The position numbers and the translations under genes are program-made. The notes beneath the pieces are model-generated. The model saw only the letters and a list, made by a program, of their open reading frames with translations. It ran no database searches and was not told the DNA's origin. Positions 8,726 through 63,560 of a DNA stretch of 64,000 nt are shown here, piece after piece (the first letter of the stretch is position 1; each line of letters opens with the position of its first letter). The DNA is from Escherichia coli (lineage in GTDB: Bacteria; Pseudomonadota; Gammaproteobacteria; Enterobacterales; Enterobacteriaceae), in NCBI RefSeq assembly GCF_003991155.1, contig NZ_CP031295.1. One strand, written 5' to 3'.

Positions 8726-9997
8726 TCAGAATGAAGCAATGGGGATCTCAGTCCATTGTGTTGTATACGAAGGCGAGAGCATTTCCCGTTTCATTTGCCA
8801 TTCAGGGGCGGTTCCTCGCCCCGCAAACCACACTTTCCCTTTTCCAGACTGGTTCAGTTCATCGAGTGTTTTCATTAACTTTTCGCTGTTTTTACGGGGC
8901 TGGATCTCATCAAATAATCCCGGCTGCGCTATACCCGATGGTGTGAAATCAGCCAGCATGACTCCTGCCTTCATATAGCGGTACCCTTCACGCCAGACAT
9001 GGTTTAACGCTCTGCATGCTGCGGCAATAATGTCCCGGCTGTCCTGTGTGGGTAATGGAAGCTTTTCCACAGCGGCATTGCTGTAACAGGGTTCTTTTAC
9101 TGCAAAGGGGGATGTCCGTACAAATGTCGTCACCTGCCGGCAATACTGACGCTCCCCACGTAGTTTCTCTGCGGCCCGCTCTGCATACTGAACAACAGCC
9201 TGGTGCATGGCATCTTTGTCTGTGATTCGTTCACCAAAACTGCGACTACAGACAATCTGCTGTTTTGCCGGTGGTGCTTCTTCCAGGGATATGCAGGACT
9301 CGCCGTTGAGTTCGCGTACCGTACGCTCAAGAATGACGCTGAAGTTTTTCCGGATGAATGCCGTGTTAGCCTGCGCCAGCTGCAGTGCTGTGTTAATACC
9401 CAGCGCATTCAGCTTTTCCGTCAGTCTGCGTCCTACTCCCCAGACCTCACCAACTGGCTGCAGCCCCAGTAGCTTCAAGATCCGATTACGGTTTTCTGCC
9501 TCCAGCGCGACCACACCGGAAAACTGTGGCCATTGCTTTGTTGCCCACTGTGCACTTTTAGCCAGCGTTTTTGTAGGCGCAATGCCCACCCCCATGGTGA
9601 GTCCTGTCCAGCTCTTTACCTGTTCCCTGAGCTGATGACCAAAAACCTCCGGAGAGATGCAATGATTTATCCCCCGCAAATCAATGAACATTTCATCAAT
9701 TGAGTAGGGCTCAACTGCGGGAGAAAGCGACTCCAGAACAGCCATGACCCGTTGGCTCATGCTGTGGTACAGCGCATAATTGCTGGAAAATACATGTATT
9801 TTCTTCTCCAGGCGCATCTGTCTCACCTGAAACCAGGGCTGCCCCATTCTGATGCCAAGGGCTTTTGCCTCCGGGCTGCGCGCGATCACACAGCCATCGT
9901 TATTGCTGAGTACGATGACCGGTTCGTTGCGAAGGTCCGGGCGGAAAACTTTTTCACATGAGGCGTAGAAACTGTTGATATCAGCCAGTGCAAACAT
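8726..9997 (-). CDS. impB: error-prone Y-family polymerase subunit (UmuC/ImpB family)
   Basis: MFALADINSFYASCEKVFRP... N-terminus typical of UmuC/MucB/ImpB; 423 aa. Confidence 0.9.
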   Translation of the reverse strand: MFALADINSFYASCEKVFRPDLRNEPVIVLSNNDGCVIARSPEAKALGIRMGQPWFQVRQMRLEKKIHVFSSNYALYHSMSQRVMAVLESLSPAVEPYSIDEMFIDLRGINHCISPEVFGHQLREQVKSWTGLTMGVGIAPTKTLAKSAQWATKQWPQFSGVVALEAENRNRILKLLGLQPVGEVWGVGRRLTEKLNALGINTALQLAQANTAFIRKNFSVILERTVRELNGESCISLEEAPPAKQQIVCSRSFGERITDKDAMHQAVVQYAERAAEKLRGERQYCRQVTTFVRTSPFAVKEPCYSNAAVEKLPLPTQDSRDIIAAACRALNHVWREGYRYMKAGVMLADFTPSGIAQPGLFDEIQPRKNSEKLMKTLDELNQSGKGKVWFAGRGTAPEWQMKREMLSPSYTTQWTEIPIASF

Positions 9998-54141: not shown

Positions 54142-54222
54142 TATTTGCCTCCTTATGTGGATATGTCTTGTGTATATCCATTGTGGGATTGATACCGGGA
54201 TATGTCAAAGGGATATACGTTT

Positions 54223-57200
54223 ATGATGAGTATCGCGCAGGTCAGATCGGCCGGAAGTGCCGGTAACTATTATACCGACAAGGATAATTACTATGTGCTG
54301 GGCAGCATGGGAGAACGCTGGGCCGGCAGGGGGGCTGAACAGCTGGGGCTGCAGGGCAGCGTCGATAAGGATGTTTTTACCCGTCTTCTGGAGGGGAAGC
54401 TGCCGGACGGAGCGGATTTAAGCCGCATGCAGGATGGCAGTAATAAGCATCGTCCCGGCTACGACCTGACCTTCTCCGCCCCCAAAAGTGTCTCCGTGAT
54501 GGCCATGTTAGGCGGTGATAAACGTCTTATTGATGCACATAACCAGGCCGTGGATTTTGCTGTCCGTCAGGTGGAGGCGCTGGCTTCCACACGGGTTATG
54601 ACGGACGGACAGTCAGAAACGGTGCTGACCGGTAATCTGGTGATGGCACTGTTTAACCACGACACCAGTCGCGATCAGGAACCACAGTTACACACACATG
54701 CGGTAGTGGCCAATGTCACGCAGCATAACGGCGAGTGGAAGACATTGAGCAGTGACAAAGTGGGGAAAACGGGGTTCATTGAGAATGTGTACGCTAATCA
54801 GATTGCCTTCGGCAGGCTCTACCGGGAAAAACTGAAAGAGCAGGTTGAGGCGCTAGGCTATGAAACGGAAGTGGTTGGTAAGCACGGTATGTGGGAGATG
54901 CCGGGCGTACCGGTGGAGGCCTTCTCCGGACGCTCACAGGCTATCCGGGAGGCCGTCGGGGAAGACGCCTCGCTGAAATCCCGGGATGTGGCGGCACTGG
55001 ATACGCGAAAATCCAAACAGCACGTCGATCCTGAAGTCAGAATGGCTGAATGGATGCAGACGCTGAAGGAAACCGGGTTCGACATCCGGGCGTATCGTGA
55101 CGCGGCGGACCAACGGGCGGAGACCCGCACGCAGACGCCCGGACCCGCTTCACAGGACGGGCCGGATGTGCAGCAGGCGGTGACACAGGCCATTGCCGGA
55201 TTAAGTGAACGCAAAGTGCAGTTTACGTACACGGACGTGCTGGCCAGAACGGTCGGCATACTGCCGCCGGAAAATGGTGTGATTGAACGGGCACGCGCCG
55301 GTATCGATGAGGCCATCAGCCGTGAGCAGCTTATCCCCCTCGATCGTGAGAAGGGGCTGTTCACGTCCGGGATTCATGTGCTCGATGAGCTGTCAGTCCG
55401 GGCACTCAGTCGTGACATCATGAAACAGAACCGGGTGACCGTACATCCGGAGAAAAGTGTCCCCCGGACGGCCGGTTACAGCGATGCGGTCAGTGTTCTG
55501 GCACAGGATCGCCCGTCGCTGGCTATTGTGTCCGGGCAGGGCGGTGCAGCCGGGCAGCGTGAGCGGGTGGCGGAGCTGGTCATGATGGCCCGGGAGCAGG
55601 GGCGGGAGGTGCAGATTATCGCCGCTGACCGTCGCTCGCAGATGAACCTGAAGCAGGATGAACGGCTGTCCGGTGAGCTGATAACCGGACGTCGTCAGCT
55701 GCAGGAGGGCATGGCCTTCACGCCGGGCAATACTGTTATCGTTGACCAGGGCGAAAAACTCTCCCTGAAAGAGACGTTAACCCTGCTGGACGGTGCCGCA
55801 CGTCATAACGTACAGGTCCTGATAACCGACAGCGGGCAGCGAACCGGTACAGGCAGTGCACTGATGGCCATGAAAGATGCCGGGGTGAACACATATCGCT
55901 GGCAGGGGGGAGAACAGCGGCCGGCCACCATCATCAGTGAACCGGACCGTAATGTCCGCTATGCCCGGCTGGCAGGAGATTTTGCTGCCAGCGTGAAAGC
56001 CGGAGAAGAGAGCGTGGCACAGGTCAGCGGGGTACGGGAACAGGCCATACTGACACAGGCCATTCGCAGTGAGCTGAAAACACAGGGCGTGCTCGGACGC
56101 CCGGAGGTAACCATGACCGCCCTGTCGCCGGTCTGGCTGGACAGCCGGAGCCGTTATCTGCGGGATATGTACCGTCCGGGGATGGTGATGGAGCAGTGGA
56201 ACCCGGAGACACGCAGTCATGACCGCTATGTTATCGACCGGGTGACGGCGCAGAGTAACAGCCTGACCCTGCGGGATGCGCAGGATGAAACGCAGGTGGT
56301 GCGTATTTCCTCCCTGGACAGCAGCTGGTCGCTGTTCCGGCCGGAAAAAATGCCGGTGGCAGACGGCGAGCGACTGAGGGTGACAGGGAAAATTCCCGGA
56401 CTCCGCGTCTCCGGCGGTGACCGCCTGCAGGTGGCATCCGTCAGTGAAGATGCGATGACGGTTGTTGTGCCGGGGCGGGCTGAACCGGCCTCCCTGCCTG
56501 TGAGCGATTCACCATTCATGGCACTGAAGCTGGAGAACGGCTGGGTGGAAACGCCCGGGCATTCCGTCAGCGACAGTGCGAAGGTTTTTGCCTCCGTCAC
56601 ACAGATGGCAATGGACAACGCCACCCTGAACGGTCTGGCCCGCAGCGGTCGTGATGTCCGGCTGTATTCCTCACTGGATGAAACCCGTACTGCGGAAAAA
56701 CTTGCCCGCCATCCCTCCTTTACGGTGGTTTCTGAGCAGATAAAGGCGCGTGCCGGTGAGACATTGCTGGAAACCGCTATCAGTCTGCAGAAAACCGGGC
56801 TTCACACGCCGGCACAGCAGGCTATTCATCTGGCGCTTCCTGTGGTGGAAAGTAAAAACCTGGCCTTCAGCATGGTGGACCTGCTGACAGAGGCGAAGTC
56901 GTTTGCTGCAGAAGGAACCAGTTTTACTGAACTGGGAGGGGAAATCAATGCGCAGATAAAACGCGGTGATTTACTGTATGTGGATGTGGCAAAAGGCTAT
57001 GGCACAGGCCTGCTGGTTTCCCGTGCGTCGTATGAGGCAGAAAAGAGCATTCTTCGCCATATTCTCGAAGGTAAGGAGGCGGTCACGCCACTGATGGAGA
57101 GAGTACCTGGCGAACTCATGGAGAAACTGACATCAGGACAGCGTGCCGCTACCCGCATGATACTGGAAACGTCCGACCGTTTCACGGTGGTGCAGGGCTA

Positions 57201-59493
57201 TGCCGGTGTGGGTAAGACCACACAGTTCCGGGCGGTGATGTCAGCCGTGAACATGCTGCCGGAGAGTGAACGTCCCCGTGTCGTGGGGCTGGGGCCCACG
57301 CACCGTGCGGTCGGTGAGATGCGCAGCGCCGGCGTGGATGCACAGACGCTGGCGTCCTTTCTGCATGACACGCAGCTGCTGCAGCGCAGCGGAGAAACGC
57401 CGAATTTCAGCAACACGCTGTTCCTGCTCGATGAGAGCTCTATGGTGGGCAATACCGACATGGCACGGGCATACGCCCTGATTGCGGCCGGTGGCGGTCG
57501 TGCCGTGGCCAGTGGTGACACGGACCAGTTGCAGGCCATCGCGCCCGGTCAGCCTTTCCGTCTCCAGCAGACGCGCAGTGCTGCCGATGTGGTCATCATG
57601 AAGGAGATTGTGCGTCAGACGCCGGAACTGCGGGAGGCGGTATACAGCCTGATTAACCGGGATGTGGAAAGGGCACTGTCCGGGCTTGAGAGTGTGAAAC
57701 CGTCTCAGGTTCCCCGTCAGGAGGGCGCATGGGCACCGGAGCACTCCGTGACGGAGTTCAGTCACAGCCAGGAAGCGAAACTGGCAGAAGCGCAGCAGAA
57801 GGCGATGCTGAAAGGCGAGGCTTTCCCGGATATCCCCATGACACTGTATGAAGCCATTGTCCGCGACTATACCGGCAGGACACCGGAAGCACGGGAGCAG
57901 ACGCTGATTGTCACACACCTGAATGAGGACCGGCGCGTACTGAACAGCATGATTCATGATGCACGGGAAAAGGCCGGTGAGCTGGGCAAAGAGCAGGTCA
58001 TGGTGCCTGTCCTGAACACAGCGAATATACGTGACGGAGAACTGCGTCGTCTCTCCACCTGGGAGAATAACCCGGATGCCCTTGCCCTGGTGGATAGTGT
58101 GTATCACCGGATTGCCGGTATCAGCAAGGATGACGGGCTGATAACCCTGGAGGATGCGGAAGGTAACACGCGGCTGATTTCGCCCCGGGAGGCGGTGGCT
58201 GAAGGCGTCACACTGTACACCCCGGACACCATCCGGGTGGGAACCGGTGACCGGATGCGCTTCACGAAGAGTGACCGGGAGCGAGGTTATGTGGCCAACA
58301 GCGTCTGGACGGTGACAGCGGTTTCCGGTGACAGTGTCACGCTGTCGGACGGACAGCAGATCCGGGTGATTCGCCCAGGTCAGGAGCGGGCAGAGCAACA
58401 TATTGACCTGGCTTATGCCATCACCGCCCACGGTGCGCAGGGGGCAAGTGAAACCTTTGCCATCGCGCTTGAAGGCACGGAAGGTAACCGGAAACTGATG
58501 GCCGGCTTTGAGTCAGCCTACGTGGCCCTGTCGCGTATGAAGCAGCATGTGCAGGTGTACACCGATAACCGTCAGGGCTGGACGGATGCCATCAACAATG
58601 CCGTACAGAAAGGAACTGCCCACGATGTGCTAGAGCCGAAATCGGACCGGGAGGTCATGAATGCAGAGCGGCTGTTCAGTACGGCGCGGGAGCTGCGGGA
58701 CGTGGTGGCCGGCCGTGCCGTTCTCCGTCAGGCAGGGCTGGCCGGGGGAGACAGTCCTGCACGGTTTATTGCACCCGGGCGCAAATATCCGCAGCCGTAT
58801 GTGGCACTGCCGGCTTTTGACCGTAACGGCAAGTCAGCTGGTATCTGGCTGAACCCGCTGACCACGGATGACGGAAACGGGCTGCGGGGCTTCAGTGGTG
58901 AAGGCCGGGTGAAAGGCAGCGGGGATGCGCAGTTCGTGGCCCTGCAGGGCAGCCGTAACGGAGAGAGCCTGCTGGCTGATAATATGCAGGATGGTGTCCG
59001 GATTGCCCGTGATAATCCTGACAGCGGTGTGGTGGTAAGAATCGCCGGTGAAGGTCGTCCGTGGAATCCCAGAACCATCACCGGTGGTCGCGTGTGGGGG
59101 GATATCCCGGACAACAGCGTTCAGCCGGGAGCCGGAAATGGCGAACCGGTCACGGCAGAGGTACTGGCACAGCGGCAGGCTGAAGAGGCCATCCGCCGTG
59201 AAACGGAACGCCGTGCGGATGAAATTGTCCGTAAAATGGCAGAGAACAAACCTGACCTGCCGGACGGCAAAACAGAGCAGGCTGTCAGGGATATTGCCGG
59301 GCTGGAGCGTGACCGGTCTGCCATATCTGAACGGGAAGCCGCGCTGCCGGAGAGTGTACTGCGTGAACCACAACGGGTGCGGGAAGCGGTCCGGGAGGTT
59401 GCCCGGGAAAATCTGCTGCAGGAGCGACTGCAGCAGATGGAGCGGGATATGGTTCGTGACCTGCAGAAAGAGAAAACCCTGGGCGGAGACTGA
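54223..59493 (+). CDS. traI: TraI relaxase-helicase
   Basis: MMSIAQVRSAGSAGNYYTDKDNYYVLGSMGERWAG relaxase N-terminus; helicase Walker A GYAGVGKTT; about 1756 aa. Confidence 0.95.
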   Translation: MMSIAQVRSAGSAGNYYTDKDNYYVLGSMGERWAGRGAEQLGLQGSVDKDVFTRLLEGKLPDGADLSRMQDGSNKHRPGYDLTFSAPKSVSVMAMLGGDKRLIDAHNQAVDFAVRQVEALASTRVMTDGQSETVLTGNLVMALFNHDTSRDQEPQLHTHAVVANVTQHNGEWKTLSSDKVGKTGFIENVYANQIAFGRLYREKLKEQVEALGYETEVVGKHGMWEMPGVPVEAFSGRSQAIREAVGEDASLKSRDVAALDTRKSKQHVDPEVRMAEWMQTLKETGFDIRAYRDAADQRAETRTQTPGPASQDGPDVQQAVTQAIAGLSERKVQFTYTDVLARTVGILPPENGVIERARAGIDEAISREQLIPLDREKGLFTSGIHVLDELSVRALSRDIMKQNRVTVHPEKSVPRTAGYSDAVSVLAQDRPSLAIVSGQGGAAGQRERVAELVMMAREQGREVQIIAADRRSQMNLKQDERLSGELITGRRQLQEGMAFTPGNTVIVDQGEKLSLKETLTLLDGAARHNVQVLITDSGQRTGTGSALMAMKDAGVNTYRWQGGEQRPATIISEPDRNVRYARLAGDFAASVKAGEESVAQVSGVREQAILTQAIRSELKTQGVLGRPEVTMTALSPVWLDSRSRYLRDMYRPGMVMEQWNPETRSHDRYVIDRVTAQSNSLTLRDAQDETQVVRISSLDSSWSLFRPEKMPVADGERLRVTGKIPGLRVSGGDRLQVASVSEDAMTVVVPGRAEPASLPVSDSPFMALKLENGWVETPGHSVSDSAKVFASVTQMAMDNATLNGLARSGRDVRLYSSLDETRTAEKLARHPSFTVVSEQIKARAGETLLETAISLQKTGLHTPAQQAIHLALPVVESKNLAFSMVDLLTEAKSFAAEGTSFTELGGEINAQIKRGDLLYVDVAKGYGTGLLVSRASYEAEKSILRHILEGKEAVTPLMERVPGELMEKLTSGQRAATRMILETSDRFTVVQGYAGVGKTTQFRAVMSAVNMLPESERPRVVGLGPTHRAVGEMRSAGVDAQTLASFLHDTQLLQRSGETPNFSNTLFLLDESSMVGNTDMARAYALIAAGGGRAVASGDTDQLQAIAPGQPFRLQQTRSAADVVIMKEIVRQTPELREAVYSLINRDVERALSGLESVKPSQVPRQEGAWAPEHSVTEFSHSQEAKLAEAQQKAMLKGEAFPDIPMTLYEAIVRDYTGRTPEAREQTLIVTHLNEDRRVLNSMIHDAREKAGELGKEQVMVPVLNTANIRDGELRRLSTWENNPDALALVDSVYHRIAGISKDDGLITLEDAEGNTRLISPREAVAEGVTLYTPDTIRVGTGDRMRFTKSDRERGYVANSVWTVTAVSGDSVTLSDGQQIRVIRPGQERAEQHIDLAYAITAHGAQGASETFAIALEGTEGNRKLMAGFESAYVALSRMKQHVQVYTDNRQGWTDAINNAVQKGTAHDVLEPKSDREVMNAERLFSTARELRDVVAGRAVLRQAGLAGGDSPARFIAPGRKYPQPYVALPAFDRNGKSAGIWLNPLTTDDGNGLRGFSGEGRVKGSGDAQFVALQGSRNGESLLADNMQDGVRIARDNPDSGVVVRIAGEGRPWNPRTITGGRVWGDIPDNSVQPGAGNGEPVTAEVLAQRQAEEAIRRETERRADEIVRKMAENKPDLPDGKTEQAVRDIAGLERDRSAISEREAALPESVLREPQRVREAVREVARENLLQERLQQMERDMVRDLQKEKTLGGD

Positions 59494-59512: not shown

Positions 59513-60259
59513 ATGACAACGGATAACACGAACACAACACGTAATGATTCACTGGCTGCCCGGACCGATACCTGGTTGCAGTCGTTGCTGGTCTGGTCAC
59601 CCGGACAGCGGGATATCATCAAAACGGTGGCACTGGTGCTGATGGTTCTGGACCATGCAAACCGCATTCTGCATCTGGACCAGTCGTGGATGTTTCTGGT
59701 CGGGCGTGGGGCCTTTCCGCTGTTTGCCCTGGTGTGGGGGCTGAATCTGTCCCGTCATACGCATATCCGGCAGGAGGCCATTAACCGGCTGTGGGGATGG
59801 GCGGTGATTGCCCAGTTCGCATATTATCTGGCCGGCTTTCCTTGGTATGAGGGGAATATCCTGTTTGCCTTTGCAGTTGCGGCACAGGTGCTGACATGGT
59901 GTGAAACGCGCACCTGGTGGCGTTCCGCAGAGACCATGTTGCTTCTGGCAATGTGGTTGCCTTTCTCCGGCACCAGTTACGGCATTGCCGGGCTGCTGAT
60001 GCTGGCAGTCAGCCACAGGCTGTACCGGGCGGAAGACAGAATGGAACGTCTGGCGCTGGTCGCCTGCCTGCTGGCTGTTATTCCGGCGCTTAACCTTGCC
60101 ACCAGTGATGCAGCGGCGGTGGCCGGCCTTGTGATGACGGTGCTGACTGTTGGTCTGGTGTCCTGTACAGGGAAATCACTACCCCGTTTCTGGTACGGGG
60201 ATTTTTTCCCGACGTTCTATGCCTGTCATCTTACTGTGCTGGGCGTTCTGGCTGTGTGA
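59513..60259 (+). CDS. traX: TraX (pilin acetylase)
   Basis: 248-aa polytopic membrane protein after traI. Confidence 0.9.
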   Translation: MTTDNTNTTRNDSLAARTDTWLQSLLVWSPGQRDIIKTVALVLMVLDHANRILHLDQSWMFLVGRGAFPLFALVWGLNLSRHTHIRQEAINRLWGWAVIAQFAYYLAGFPWYEGNILFAFAVAAQVLTWCETRTWWRSAETMLLLAMWLPFSGTSYGIAGLLMLAVSHRLYRAEDRMERLALVACLLAVIPALNLATSDAAAVAGLVMTVLTVGLVSCTGKSLPRFWYGDFFPTFYACHLTVLGVLAV

Positions 60260-60317
60260 CTGGTATGATGCTGGCGCTGATTCTGCTTATTAATAAACAA
60301 CATAACACAGGATATTT

Positions 60318-61178
60318 ATGAAAATTACGGATCACAAACTCCCTGAAGGTATTGCCCTGACATTTCGTGTCCCGGAAGGAAATATAAAACATCCTTTGAT
60401 TCTCTTATGCCATGGATTTTGCGGTATCCGGAATGTTCTGCTGCCTTCCTTTGCGAATGCGTTTACAGAAGCCGGGTTTGCAACGATTACTTTTGATTAT
60501 CGTGGATTCGGTGAGAGTGAAGGGGAACGAGGTCGTCTGGTTCCGGCAATGCAGACCGAAGATATTATTTCAGTTATCAATTGGGCAGAAAAGCAGGTAT
60601 GTATTGATAATCAGCGTATAGGATTATGGGGAACATCGCTGGGTGGGTGTCATGTATTCAATGCAGCTGCGCAGGATAAAAGAGTGAAAAGTATTGTCAG
60701 CCAGCTGGCTTTTGCTGACGGTGAGGTTCTGGTTACCGGAGAAATGAATGAACTGGAGAAAGCTTCTTTTCTGTCCACGCTGAATAAAATGGCAGAAAAG
60801 AAGAAAAATACCGGGAAAGAGATGTTTGTGGGGGTTACCCGGGTACTGAGTGATAATGAATCAAAGGTATTCTTCGAGAAGGTAAAAGGTCAGTATCCTG
60901 AAATGGATATAAAAATACCTTTCCTTACGGTTATGGAGACGTTGCAATATAAACCGGCAGAGAGCGCAGCCAAAGTACAGTGCCCAGTTTTGGTTGTTAT
61001 TGCCGGCCAGGATAGTGTTAATCCACCAGAACAGGGAAGAGCCTTATATGATGCTGTTGCTTCTGGTACTAAGGAATTATACGAGGAAGCTGACGCATGC
61101 CATTATGATATTTATAAAGGCGCGTTTTTTGAACGTGTGGCGGCAGTACAGACGCAATGGTTTAAAAAACATCTTTAA
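60318..61178 (+). CDS. alpha/beta-fold hydrolase
   Basis: GxSxG nucleophile elbow (LWGTSLGGC) and HGFCG oxyanion-hole-like motif; 286 aa. Confidence 0.7.
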   Translation: MKITDHKLPEGIALTFRVPEGNIKHPLILLCHGFCGIRNVLLPSFANAFTEAGFATITFDYRGFGESEGERGRLVPAMQTEDIISVINWAEKQVCIDNQRIGLWGTSLGGCHVFNAAAQDKRVKSIVSQLAFADGEVLVTGEMNELEKASFLSTLNKMAEKKKNTGKEMFVGVTRVLSDNESKVFFEKVKGQYPEMDIKIPFLTVMETLQYKPAESAAKVQCPVLVVIAGQDSVNPPEQGRALYDAVASGTKELYEEADACHYDIYKGAFFERVAAVQTQWFKKHL

Positions 61179-61280
61179 TTGTCGGTATTAATATGTCAGA
61201 GGTCGTTGAGGTCAGCTTAATATCATAGTGAGTAGTTTCAACGACCTGGAGGACATATTTTCACAAAGGTCAGGGCAATC

Positions 61281-61841
61281 ATGACAGAGCAGAAACGACC
61301 GGTACTGACACTGAAACGGAAAACGGAAGGGGAAACACCGACCCGGAGCCGGAAAACCATCATCAATGTCACCACGCCACCAAAATGGAAGGTGAAAAAG
61401 CAGAAACTGGCGGAGAAGGCTGCCCGGGAAGCAGAGCTGGCGGCGAAGAAAGCACAGGCCAGACAGGCGCTGTCCATTTATCTGACGCTGCCCTCGCTGG
61501 ATGAGGCGGTGAACACTCTGAAACCTTGGTGGCCGGGATTGTTTGACGGTAACACGCCCCGGCTTCTGGCCTGCGGTATCCGGGACGTGTTACTGGAAGA
61601 CGTGGCGCAGCGGAATATCCCGCTCTCGCATAAAAAACTGCGCCGGGCGCTGAAGGCCATCACCCGTTCAGAAAGCTATCTGTGTGCCATGAAAGCCGGT
61701 GCCTGCCGGTATGACACGGAAGGGTATGTGACGGAGCATATTTCTCAGGAGGAGGAAGCGTATGCGGCAGGGCGTTTGGAGAAAATTCGCCGCCAGAACC
61801 GGACAAAGGCAGAACTTCAGGCCGTGCTTGATGGGAAATAA
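61281..61841 (+). CDS. finO: FinO fertility inhibition protein (intact)
   Basis: 186 aa, Lys-rich N-terminus; matches FinO as recalled. Confidence 0.9.
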
Positions 61842-61846
61842 AAAAA

Positions 61847-61875
61847 GCCTCCCCGGAAACCGGGGAGGCTGAAAC
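61847..61875 (+). terminator. rho-independent terminator after finO
   Basis: AGCCTCCCCGGAAACCGGGGAGGCT hairpin. Confidence 0.7.
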
Positions 61876-62189: not shown

Positions 62190-62869
62190 CGAAAAAAGCA
62201 GCCTTCATTACTCCAGGAGTCAGAAGGCTGAAAGGAGTTTATGAGATTTGCTTTTTTTAATATCCGGTCGGGCAGTATGACCGGCCAGTTCTGAGTAGCA
62301 CAGAGTTTTTTCCGTATTAAGTCGCGATTTTATATTTTGTGATTAATTTCACAAAATAAGGTCTTATTCAATGTGTGCTGCGATATTCAGGGGGGCTGAA
62401 ATACAGGTGCCATTTATCTGATATGGAGAATAACATGAGGAAATATATTCCACTGGTATTATTTATCTTTTCATGGCCGGTATTGTCTGCAGATGTTCAC
62501 GGGCAGATTTATGCACCAGACAGAATGAATGTTAATTAGTTTATGAATACAACAGGGGCTGATCAGCAATCACCGGAACATCGTAGCTGACGCGTTCGCA
62601 ATGCTCAGTTGTCCCCCCCGGAAACGGGAAAAAGTAAGTTTTCCCCCGCTCCCGGCGTTTTTGTAACAAAAACAGGCAAATGGGGGTAATAGTCAGCAAC
62701 AGGGAATGTGGTATTATCGCGGCGGGTGTTTGAGCCTTTCTGGTTCAGGCAAGACGCAGGTACCAGAAATGCGAAGACCCCACTCGTTAATCCATTAACT
62801 CGTGAGGTCTGCATGAAGTACCTTAACACTACTGATTGTAGCCTCTTCTTTGCTGAGAGGTCAAAGTTT

Positions 62870-63019
62870 ATGACGAAATATGCCCTTATCGGGTTGCTCG
62901 CCGTGTGCGCCACGGTGTTGTGTTTTTCACTGATATTCAGGGAACGGTTATGTGAGCTGAATATTCACAGAGGAAATACAGTGGTGCAGGTAACTCTGGC
63001 CTACGAAGCACGGAAGTAA
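62870..63019 (+). CDS. srnB: Hok/Gef-family toxin (SrnB/PndA-like, 49 aa) with in-frame upstream extension from 62813
   Basis: MTKYALIGLLAVCATVLCFSLIFRERLCELNIHRGNTVVQVTLAYEARK resembles the Hok toxin at 24550. Confidence 0.75.
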   Translation: MTKYALIGLLAVCATVLCFSLIFRERLCELNIHRGNTVVQVTLAYEARK

Positions 63020-63302: not shown

Positions 63303-63560
63303 ATGTCGCAGACAGAAAATGCAGTGACTTCCTCATCAGGCACCAAGCGTACATACCGGAAAGGTAACCCTGTTCCGGCCAGAGAGAGGCAAAGAGCTTC
63401 TCTGGCTCGCAGAAGCAACACTCATAAGGCTTTTCATGCGGTTATTCAGGCCCGGTTAAAAGACAGGCTGAGTGAACTGGCGGATGAGGAAGGTATTACT
63501 CAGGCGCAGATGCTTGAAAAACTGATTGAATCAGAGCTGAAACGCAGAGCGACTTCGTAA
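63303..63560 (+). CDS. copB: IncFII-type replication control protein CopB/RepA2
   Basis: [11 protein letters not shown]... with C-terminal [19 protein letters not shown] matches CopB as recalled. Confidence 0.8.

Follow-up and report, generated by a model that had tools for sequence, protein, structure and literature searches.

A UilS-family alpha/beta hydrolase gene of foreign composition between traX and finO of F-like plasmids

Background

The closest described system is the urea-induced UilS of Serratia marcescens RM66262 (Tuttobene et al., mBio 2024, PMC11633161). According to that report, the wild type cleared exogenous C10-AHL (AHL, N-acyl-homoserine lactone), its own long-chain AHLs and those of Pseudomonas aeruginosa, as judged with biosensors. 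A uilS mutant lost AHL removal and regained it upon complementation, and E. coli TOP10 carrying uilS removed C10-AHL (PMC11633161). Cell-free supernatants were devoid of activity, from which UilS was taken to be intracellular and cell-associated. The product is given there as 97-100% identical among clinical S. marcescens strains, and the basis for proposing the designation lactonase was the 28% identity that UilS shares with AidA of Acinetobacter (PMC11633161). Even for this prototype, opening of the lactone ring as opposed to deacylation is only deduced, since the accessible part of the study describes neither a purified enzyme nor an identified product; plasmid homologues of UilS are nowhere mentioned in the paper (PMC11633161).

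Two other groups of AHL-degrading enzymes bear comparison. AidA, AidH, AiiM and Est816 resemble the protein analysed here in their alpha/beta-hydrolase fold and metal-independent serine-hydrolase chemistry. AiiA and AiiB are AHL lactonases of the metallo-beta-lactamase type. BlcC of Agrobacterium is also a lactonase of this type, and it helps to control conjugation of the Ti plasmid (PMC7690428). The likeness to BlcC-type lactonases is one of functional analogy only (a signal-degrading lactonase tied to control of conjugative transfer), as their fold is unrelated and carries the zinc motif HxHxDH. Moreover, the AHL in Agrobacterium is the plasmid's own transfer signal, unlike in F-like plasmids, for which we know of no AHL circuit.

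As for the plasmid site itself, the interval from traX to finO in R100 contains, at 84561-85421, the gene of an alpha/beta hydrolase of 286 aa. The 286-codon traX-finO ORF of R100/R6-5 is the classical 'orf286' (Cram et al. 1991, Gene 104:85; van Biesen & Frost 1992, Mol Microbiol 6:771). A literature search on 'orf286' returned nothing relevant.

Position of the gene and the inserted block

The window, that is the whole 64,000-nucleotide stretch of Escherichia coli DNA that was analysed, contains traI at 54202..59493, followed by these features:

59513..60259, + strand: traX (pilin acetylase), the last core tra gene and upstream neighbour of the hydrolase gene (NF010260, 529.7 bits; PF05857, E=3.9e-65)
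60268..61279, + strand: low-GC block of 1,012 bp carrying the hydrolase gene (blastn breakpoints 60267/61280 against CP061263 and F, NC_002483)
60309..60312, + strand: Shine-Dalgarno sequence AGGA, 5 nt 5' of the hydrolase ATG (read from the sequence; same in five alleles)
60318..61178, + strand: uilS-family alpha/beta hydrolase gene, 286 aa, ATG start, stop included
61281..61841, + strand: finO (fertility inhibition RNA chaperone), intact, the downstream neighbour (NF010317, 356.9 bits; PF12602 and PF04352)

An earlier note on this DNA had described a 286-aa ORF between traX and finO that encodes a GTSLGG motif, and both were recovered exactly (60318-61178, + strand; residues 105-110). The R100 ORF is the same gene at the same site. 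It represents an allele with 95% nucleotide and 94.8% protein identity to the window gene, and the two are distinguished by allelic differences only (17 non-synonymous and 26 synonymous changes).

In the gene-less plasmids CP061263 and F (NC_002483), the site of the block is occupied by 44-45 bp, with identical blastn breakpoints in both. The left edge of the block lies 8 nt past the traX stop codon and the right edge 1 nt before the finO ATG. Because of the latter, plasmids with and without the block have wholly different finO leaders and ribosome-binding sites. The GC content was ~0.42-0.45 across 60200-61300, as compared to ~0.57-0.61 in the traX/finO flanks. For the hydrolase ORF alone, GC was 0.433 and GC3 0.373, against 0.57/0.65 for traX/finO; GC3 of traI, traX and finO ranged from 0.64 to 0.66. 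No signature of a mobile element was found at the block, be it IS ends, terminal inverted repeats, target-site duplication or a transposase.

The hydrolase gene is thus not a core F-type tra gene, as F lacks it, as do at least 2,777 plasmids in which traX directly adjoins finO, and its GC3 is 0.37 versus 0.64-0.66. It is cargo of foreign composition, an accessory gene of F-like plasmids.

Family assignment and predicted active site

Against the NCBIfam model NF047920 (equivalog, 'UilS family quorum-quenching N-acyl-homoserine lactonase'), the window protein scored 504.3 bits (cut-off 400, E=1.2e-151), with residues 2-286 aligned end to end to profile positions 1-285/285. For scale, S. marcescens P0122 scored 519.4, a Citrobacter member 519 and a Burkholderia member 482. 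P0122 represents 194 S. marcescens sequences clustered at 90% and stands in here for RM66262 UilS; it was reached by a second protein search with an S. inhibens query, S. marcescens having been absent from the first genome-contig scan. The window protein and P0122 shared 64% identity and 78% positives over 286 aa with 0 gaps. Among chromosomal UilS members, pairwise identity is 64-86%, a span that takes in the 64% shared by the window protein and P0122. The plasmid clade, at 62-70% identity to the chromosomal members, is therefore a somewhat long yet ordinary UilS branch. On profile score and collinearity, the window protein belongs to the UilS family.

The Pfam profile PF00561 (Abhydrolase_1) matched residues 26-268 on profile positions 1-244/245 with 114.5 bits (cut-off 25.8, E=8.5e-33). 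These two profile E-values, and the intactness of the ORF in more than 2,200 plasmid records, show that it is no chance frame. The predicted structure (pLDDT 86.8) has the canonical alpha/beta core of beta-sheet and helices with a cap, as in solved hydrolases. The residues of the predicted active site are encoded as follows:

60630..60647, + strand: nucleophile elbow G-T-S-L-G-G, with the Ser107 codon TCG at 60636-60638 (S107 invariant in 30 homologues)
61011..61013, + strand: Asp232 codon, predicted triad acid (column D232 invariant; codon taken from the sequence)
61101..61103, + strand: His262 codon, predicted triad base (column H262 invariant; codon taken from the sequence)

The GTSLG motif occupies residues 105-109, and the order Ser...Asp...His together with the HG oxyanion motif fits what is expected of an alpha/beta hydrolase. 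In 30 homologues, down to 63% identity, the invariant positions were S107, D232, H262, the oxyanion motif H32-G33 and a cap segment 'MDIKIPFLT'. Judged by profile, motif order and modelled fold, the protein is an alpha/beta hydrolase with a predicted Ser107-Asp232-His262 triad. The likeness to S. marcescens UilS comprises the length of 286 aa, collinearity without gaps, the same Ser/Asp/His triad and the HG motif. It would also extend to the cellular location, reported as cytoplasmic for UilS and predicted to be so for the window protein. No signal-peptide-like hydrophobic stretch or membrane segment was found in the window protein, whose N-terminus reads MKITDHKLPEGIALTFRVPEG, and it is predicted to be cytoplasmic, not secreted.

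The closest solved structures were 7qjm (Chloroflexus alpha/beta hydrolase '202'), the thioesterase DcsB (7d78) and E. coli YcjY (5xb6), all at 22-24% identity. At this distance, and with functions that differ or are unknown, they are uninformative on the substrate. No solved AHL lactonase emerged as a near relative by sequence or profile search, and by fold Est816 ranked only 60th.

Two other enzyme classes were considered and rejected. An AHL lactonase of the metallo-beta-lactamase (AiiA) type does not fit, as the fold is that of an alpha/beta hydrolase and the zinc HxHxDH motif is missing; this motif is in fact impossible in a protein with His only at positions 6, 25, 32, 112, 262 and 285. 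The profile of dienelactone hydrolase (PF01738, DLH) matched only in part (residues 19-128, 23.7 bits), and no single stretch passed by itself. The nucleophile of DLH is Cys (in a Cys-His-Asp arrangement), and that of the window protein is Ser107.

Distribution among plasmids and chromosomes

In the plasmid collection, 2,234 records held at least 80% of segment 60200-61300, and the uninterrupted traX-finO junction was present in at least 2,777 records. Hence ~45% of F-like plasmids carry the gene (2,234 with versus at least 2,777 without). Of 5,426 complete E. coli genomes, 1,914 (~35%) had the gene, and 2,026 of its 2,033 copies were plasmid-borne. The RefSeq label of the E. coli plasmid gene is 'uilS: UilS family quorum-quenching N-acyl-homoserine lactonase'. 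Since gene, family and name are all present in public annotation, the sequence finding is ordinary and already known: the family was defined in 2024, and the gene has been present in R100-type plasmid sequences for decades.

Sometimes, the gene was intact where its surroundings were not. In the non-conjugative pO157 (pO157-type pF8952-1), the tra operon is reduced to a traI fragment, traX, uilS and finO, and uilS is intact. In the pO145 remnant (pO145-12581, NZ_CP007138, 72614-73474), the intact gene lies between IS66 and IS600, with traX and finO gone.

A second, independent UilS lineage of 60-80% identity was found on 827 other plasmids, including large plasmids of Klebsiella, IncC and other large plasmids of Salmonella, and plasmids of Aeromonas. 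Its contexts were transposon or virulence-island regions, not tra. Plasmids have thus captured UilS repeatedly, which argues for a stand-alone benefit, independent of conjugation. The majority of the UilS family is encoded on chromosomes, in neighbourhoods free of tra genes. S. marcescens uilS itself differs from the window gene in being chromosomal, whereas the latter is plasmid-borne inside the tra operon.

Both plasmid lineages were once seen together, on scaffold2 of Klebsiella pneumoniae ATCC 13883 (NZ_KN046819, 107 kb), which carries both an F-type copy of 99% identity and a paralogue of 70%. The latter belongs to the lineage of the 827 plasmids and adjoins a Tn3 transposase/resolvase, ISL3 and IS91-type transposases and an EamA transporter. 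Copies of 76-99% identity also occurred on contigs of 316-2,196 bp in assemblies labelled Collinsella, Clostridiales, Terrisporobacter, Acinetobacter idrijaensis and Bacillus. Under those taxa, such tiny-contig copies most likely represent contamination or mis-binned plasmid fragments.

Selection on the protein

Five alleles were compared: that of the window, a 99% allele, the 95% R100-type, the 90% pO157-type and the pO145 remnant. Each of the five was intact (286 aa) and had retained the triad. Pairwise dN/dS was 0.08-0.20 for the hydrolase, while finO and traX of the same plasmids gave 0.10-0.21 and 0.29-0.31, respectively. With values as low as or below those of finO and traX, the hydrolase is under purifying selection as a protein, not as RNA alone.

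Expression signals and the finO leader

Our scan detected no promoter-like site on the + strand upstream of the hydrolase ORF, and no terminator-like site from the traX stop codon to the ORF. With no promoter of its own and no terminator after the traX stop, read-through from the tra operon would be the simplest reading.

A terminator-like hairpin does occur at 60182-60200 (CCCCGTTTCTGGTACGGGG followed by ATTTTTT), within the 3' end of traX and ~60 nt before its stop codon. It is part of conserved traX sequence and lies outside the inserted block.

S. marcescens uilS is regulated by LuxR/AHL and CpxR/urea, and no such context was detected at the window gene. Neither a CpxR nor an SdiA box was found within 220 nt upstream of the ORF. 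A single lux-like match there was rejected as a lux box, being at chance level and too near the ATG. No luxR was found within 4 kb of uilS in S. marcescens and S. inhibens, where the neighbours are a molybdopterin oxidoreductase gene, a LysR regulator gene and a TauE or HlyD-type gene. LuxR/AHL and CpxR/urea regulation is a trait of the Serratia locus, not of the UilS protein family.

Within the block, the spacer between the hydrolase stop codon and finO contains one conspicuous structure:

61190..61259, + strand: strong RNA stem-loop (MFE -31.5 kcal/mol, z = -4.1)

None of 200 shuffled sequences was equally stable, and a U-tract is absent. Complementarity of the inner arms (61200-61209/61238-61247) is 100%, and in the 90% allele G-U pairs maintain them. 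The stem-loop may be a processing or stabilising element of the upstream or the finO message.

Another candidate, a 15-nt inverted repeat linking the start of the ORF to the finO ribosome-binding region (60351-60365/61265-61279, 14/15 complementary, 899 nt apart), was rejected as probably due to chance because the 90% allele has two extra mismatches in it. The estimated chance expectation for such a repeat was ~0.03 pairs.

Function of the plasmid enzyme

The explanation we consider probable is that the gene is plasmid cargo for a cytoplasmic UilS-family hydrolase which inactivates AHLs entering the host cell, and that it is probably co-transcribed with tra. The foreign low-GC block of 1 kb came to lie precisely between the stop codon of traX and the start of finO. 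The gene, lacking a promoter and terminator of its own, would probably be transcribed by read-through of the tra operon, leading to production of a soluble cytoplasmic serine hydrolase (Ser107-Asp232-His262, oxyanion motif H32-G33). N-acyl-homoserine lactones diffusing in from neighbouring bacteria would then be inactivated, probably by opening of the lactone ring. In this way, the plasmid might blunt both the quorum signals of other species and the eavesdropping of its own host. To our knowledge, E. coli itself does not synthesise AHLs, yet it senses them via SdiA, so that what the plasmid would dampen in its host is eavesdropping.

Our literature search found no report of AHL degradation by the plasmid protein. 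From kinship with the Serratia enzyme, AHLs are most likely its substrate; the substrate, the ring-opening chemistry, the co-transcription with tra and the ecological benefit are what we infer from the data above.

Possible, though rather doubtful, is that the protein acts as a carboxylesterase, lactonase or thioesterase of a general kind and has another ester or lactone as its true substrate (for example a lactone from a plant or host, a xenobiotic ester or an acyl-thioester), AHL hydrolysis being a side activity or absent from the plasmid clade. The NF047920 score nearly equal to that of the Serratia protein stands against this, as does the retention of the triad and of all invariant UilS family columns. 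Furthermore, UilS clears several AHLs in vivo and also in E. coli (PMC11633161).

Should AHLs indeed be destroyed by the plasmid enzyme, E. coli hosts would owe a capacity for quorum quenching to their most common conjugative plasmids. The carriers include R100-type resistance plasmids and pO157. Such an activity could touch eavesdropping through SdiA, the contest with Pseudomonas or Serratia, and perhaps conjugation as well, since in E. coli donors traI of RP4 is reported to be repressed by AHL-SdiA (PMC5247672). As for pSLT, sdiA lowers its transfer 3-6-fold, and AHL was without effect there (PMC11619404). In view of these reports, it is conceivable that the enzyme and the control of transfer are linked. 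We found no study in the literature on why a signal-degrading enzyme ends the transfer operon of ~45% of F-like plasmids.

A more speculative proposal, which we hold to be unlikely, is that the block acts as a two-in-one regulatory module coupling signalling between species to plasmid fertility: a tra-dependent enzyme would clear AHLs from the donor and so relieve the effects of AHL-SdiA on conjugation or host behaviour, and the new finO leader, with its stable stem-loop, would raise FinO and thereby tighten fertility inhibition. If so, presence or absence of the block would set F-like plasmids on different strategies of transfer in mixed communities.

The finO part of this proposal could also be taken by itself. 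The block might be kept mainly for an effect in cis, the altered 5' leader raising the level or stability of finO mRNA and thus fertility inhibition, with the enzyme incidental. The entire difference of finO leaders and ribosome-binding sites between plasmids with and without the block is in line with this, and so is the stem-loop of the new leader, which is conserved, very stable and devoid of a U-tract. In a further point in its favour, van Biesen and Frost (1992) reportedly traced the stronger fertility inhibition of the R6-5 type to finO mRNA, the level of which was raised in association with orf286. Yet a merely incidental enzyme fits poorly with dN/dS of 0.08-0.20 and with every allele being intact at 286 aa. 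Nor would it explain why the ORF is intact in pO145, where finO is lost, and why homologues are selected on chromosomes and on other plasmids without finO. As the main reason for keeping the block, the cis effect is therefore very improbable, and as the sole reason it is unlikely; as an additional effect it is quite plausible.

Hardly credible, finally, is that the enzyme assists conjugation by working on pilin or envelope lipids, for example by reversing the N-acetylation of pilin by TraX or remodelling lipids of the mating junction: its position directly after traX in the tra transcription unit is the one point in favour, whereas the gene is missing from F, which is efficient at transfer, and from all the plasmids with a direct traX-finO junction, its composition is foreign, the protein has no signal peptide or membrane segment, and the family is mostly chromosomal with no tra genes near. 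Of the suggestions in the earlier note, alpha/beta hydrolase and cargo gene stand, and a role on pilin or a lipid finds no support, given the absence of the gene from F, the cytoplasmic prediction and the chromosomal relatives without tra.

Sequences downstream of finO

Directly after the finO stop codon, an 11-bp GC-rich hairpin is present at 61846-61870, preceded by an A-run on the plus strand. With its T-run on the minus strand, it scores as a leftward terminator and not as that of finO.

In comparison with R100 (locus extract 8737-9968), the window misses most of ~1.2 kb past finO, which in R100 comprises a thermonuclease-family gene, hha and a DUF2726 gene. Pieces of 50 nt and 118 nt are left of it in the window (62496-62660). 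An ORF of 54 aa at 62375-62539 resembles a truncated start of the thermonuclease gene. Further downstream, a Hok/SrnB-type toxin ORF (62708-63019) is followed by a RepA2/CopB regulator (63303-63560).
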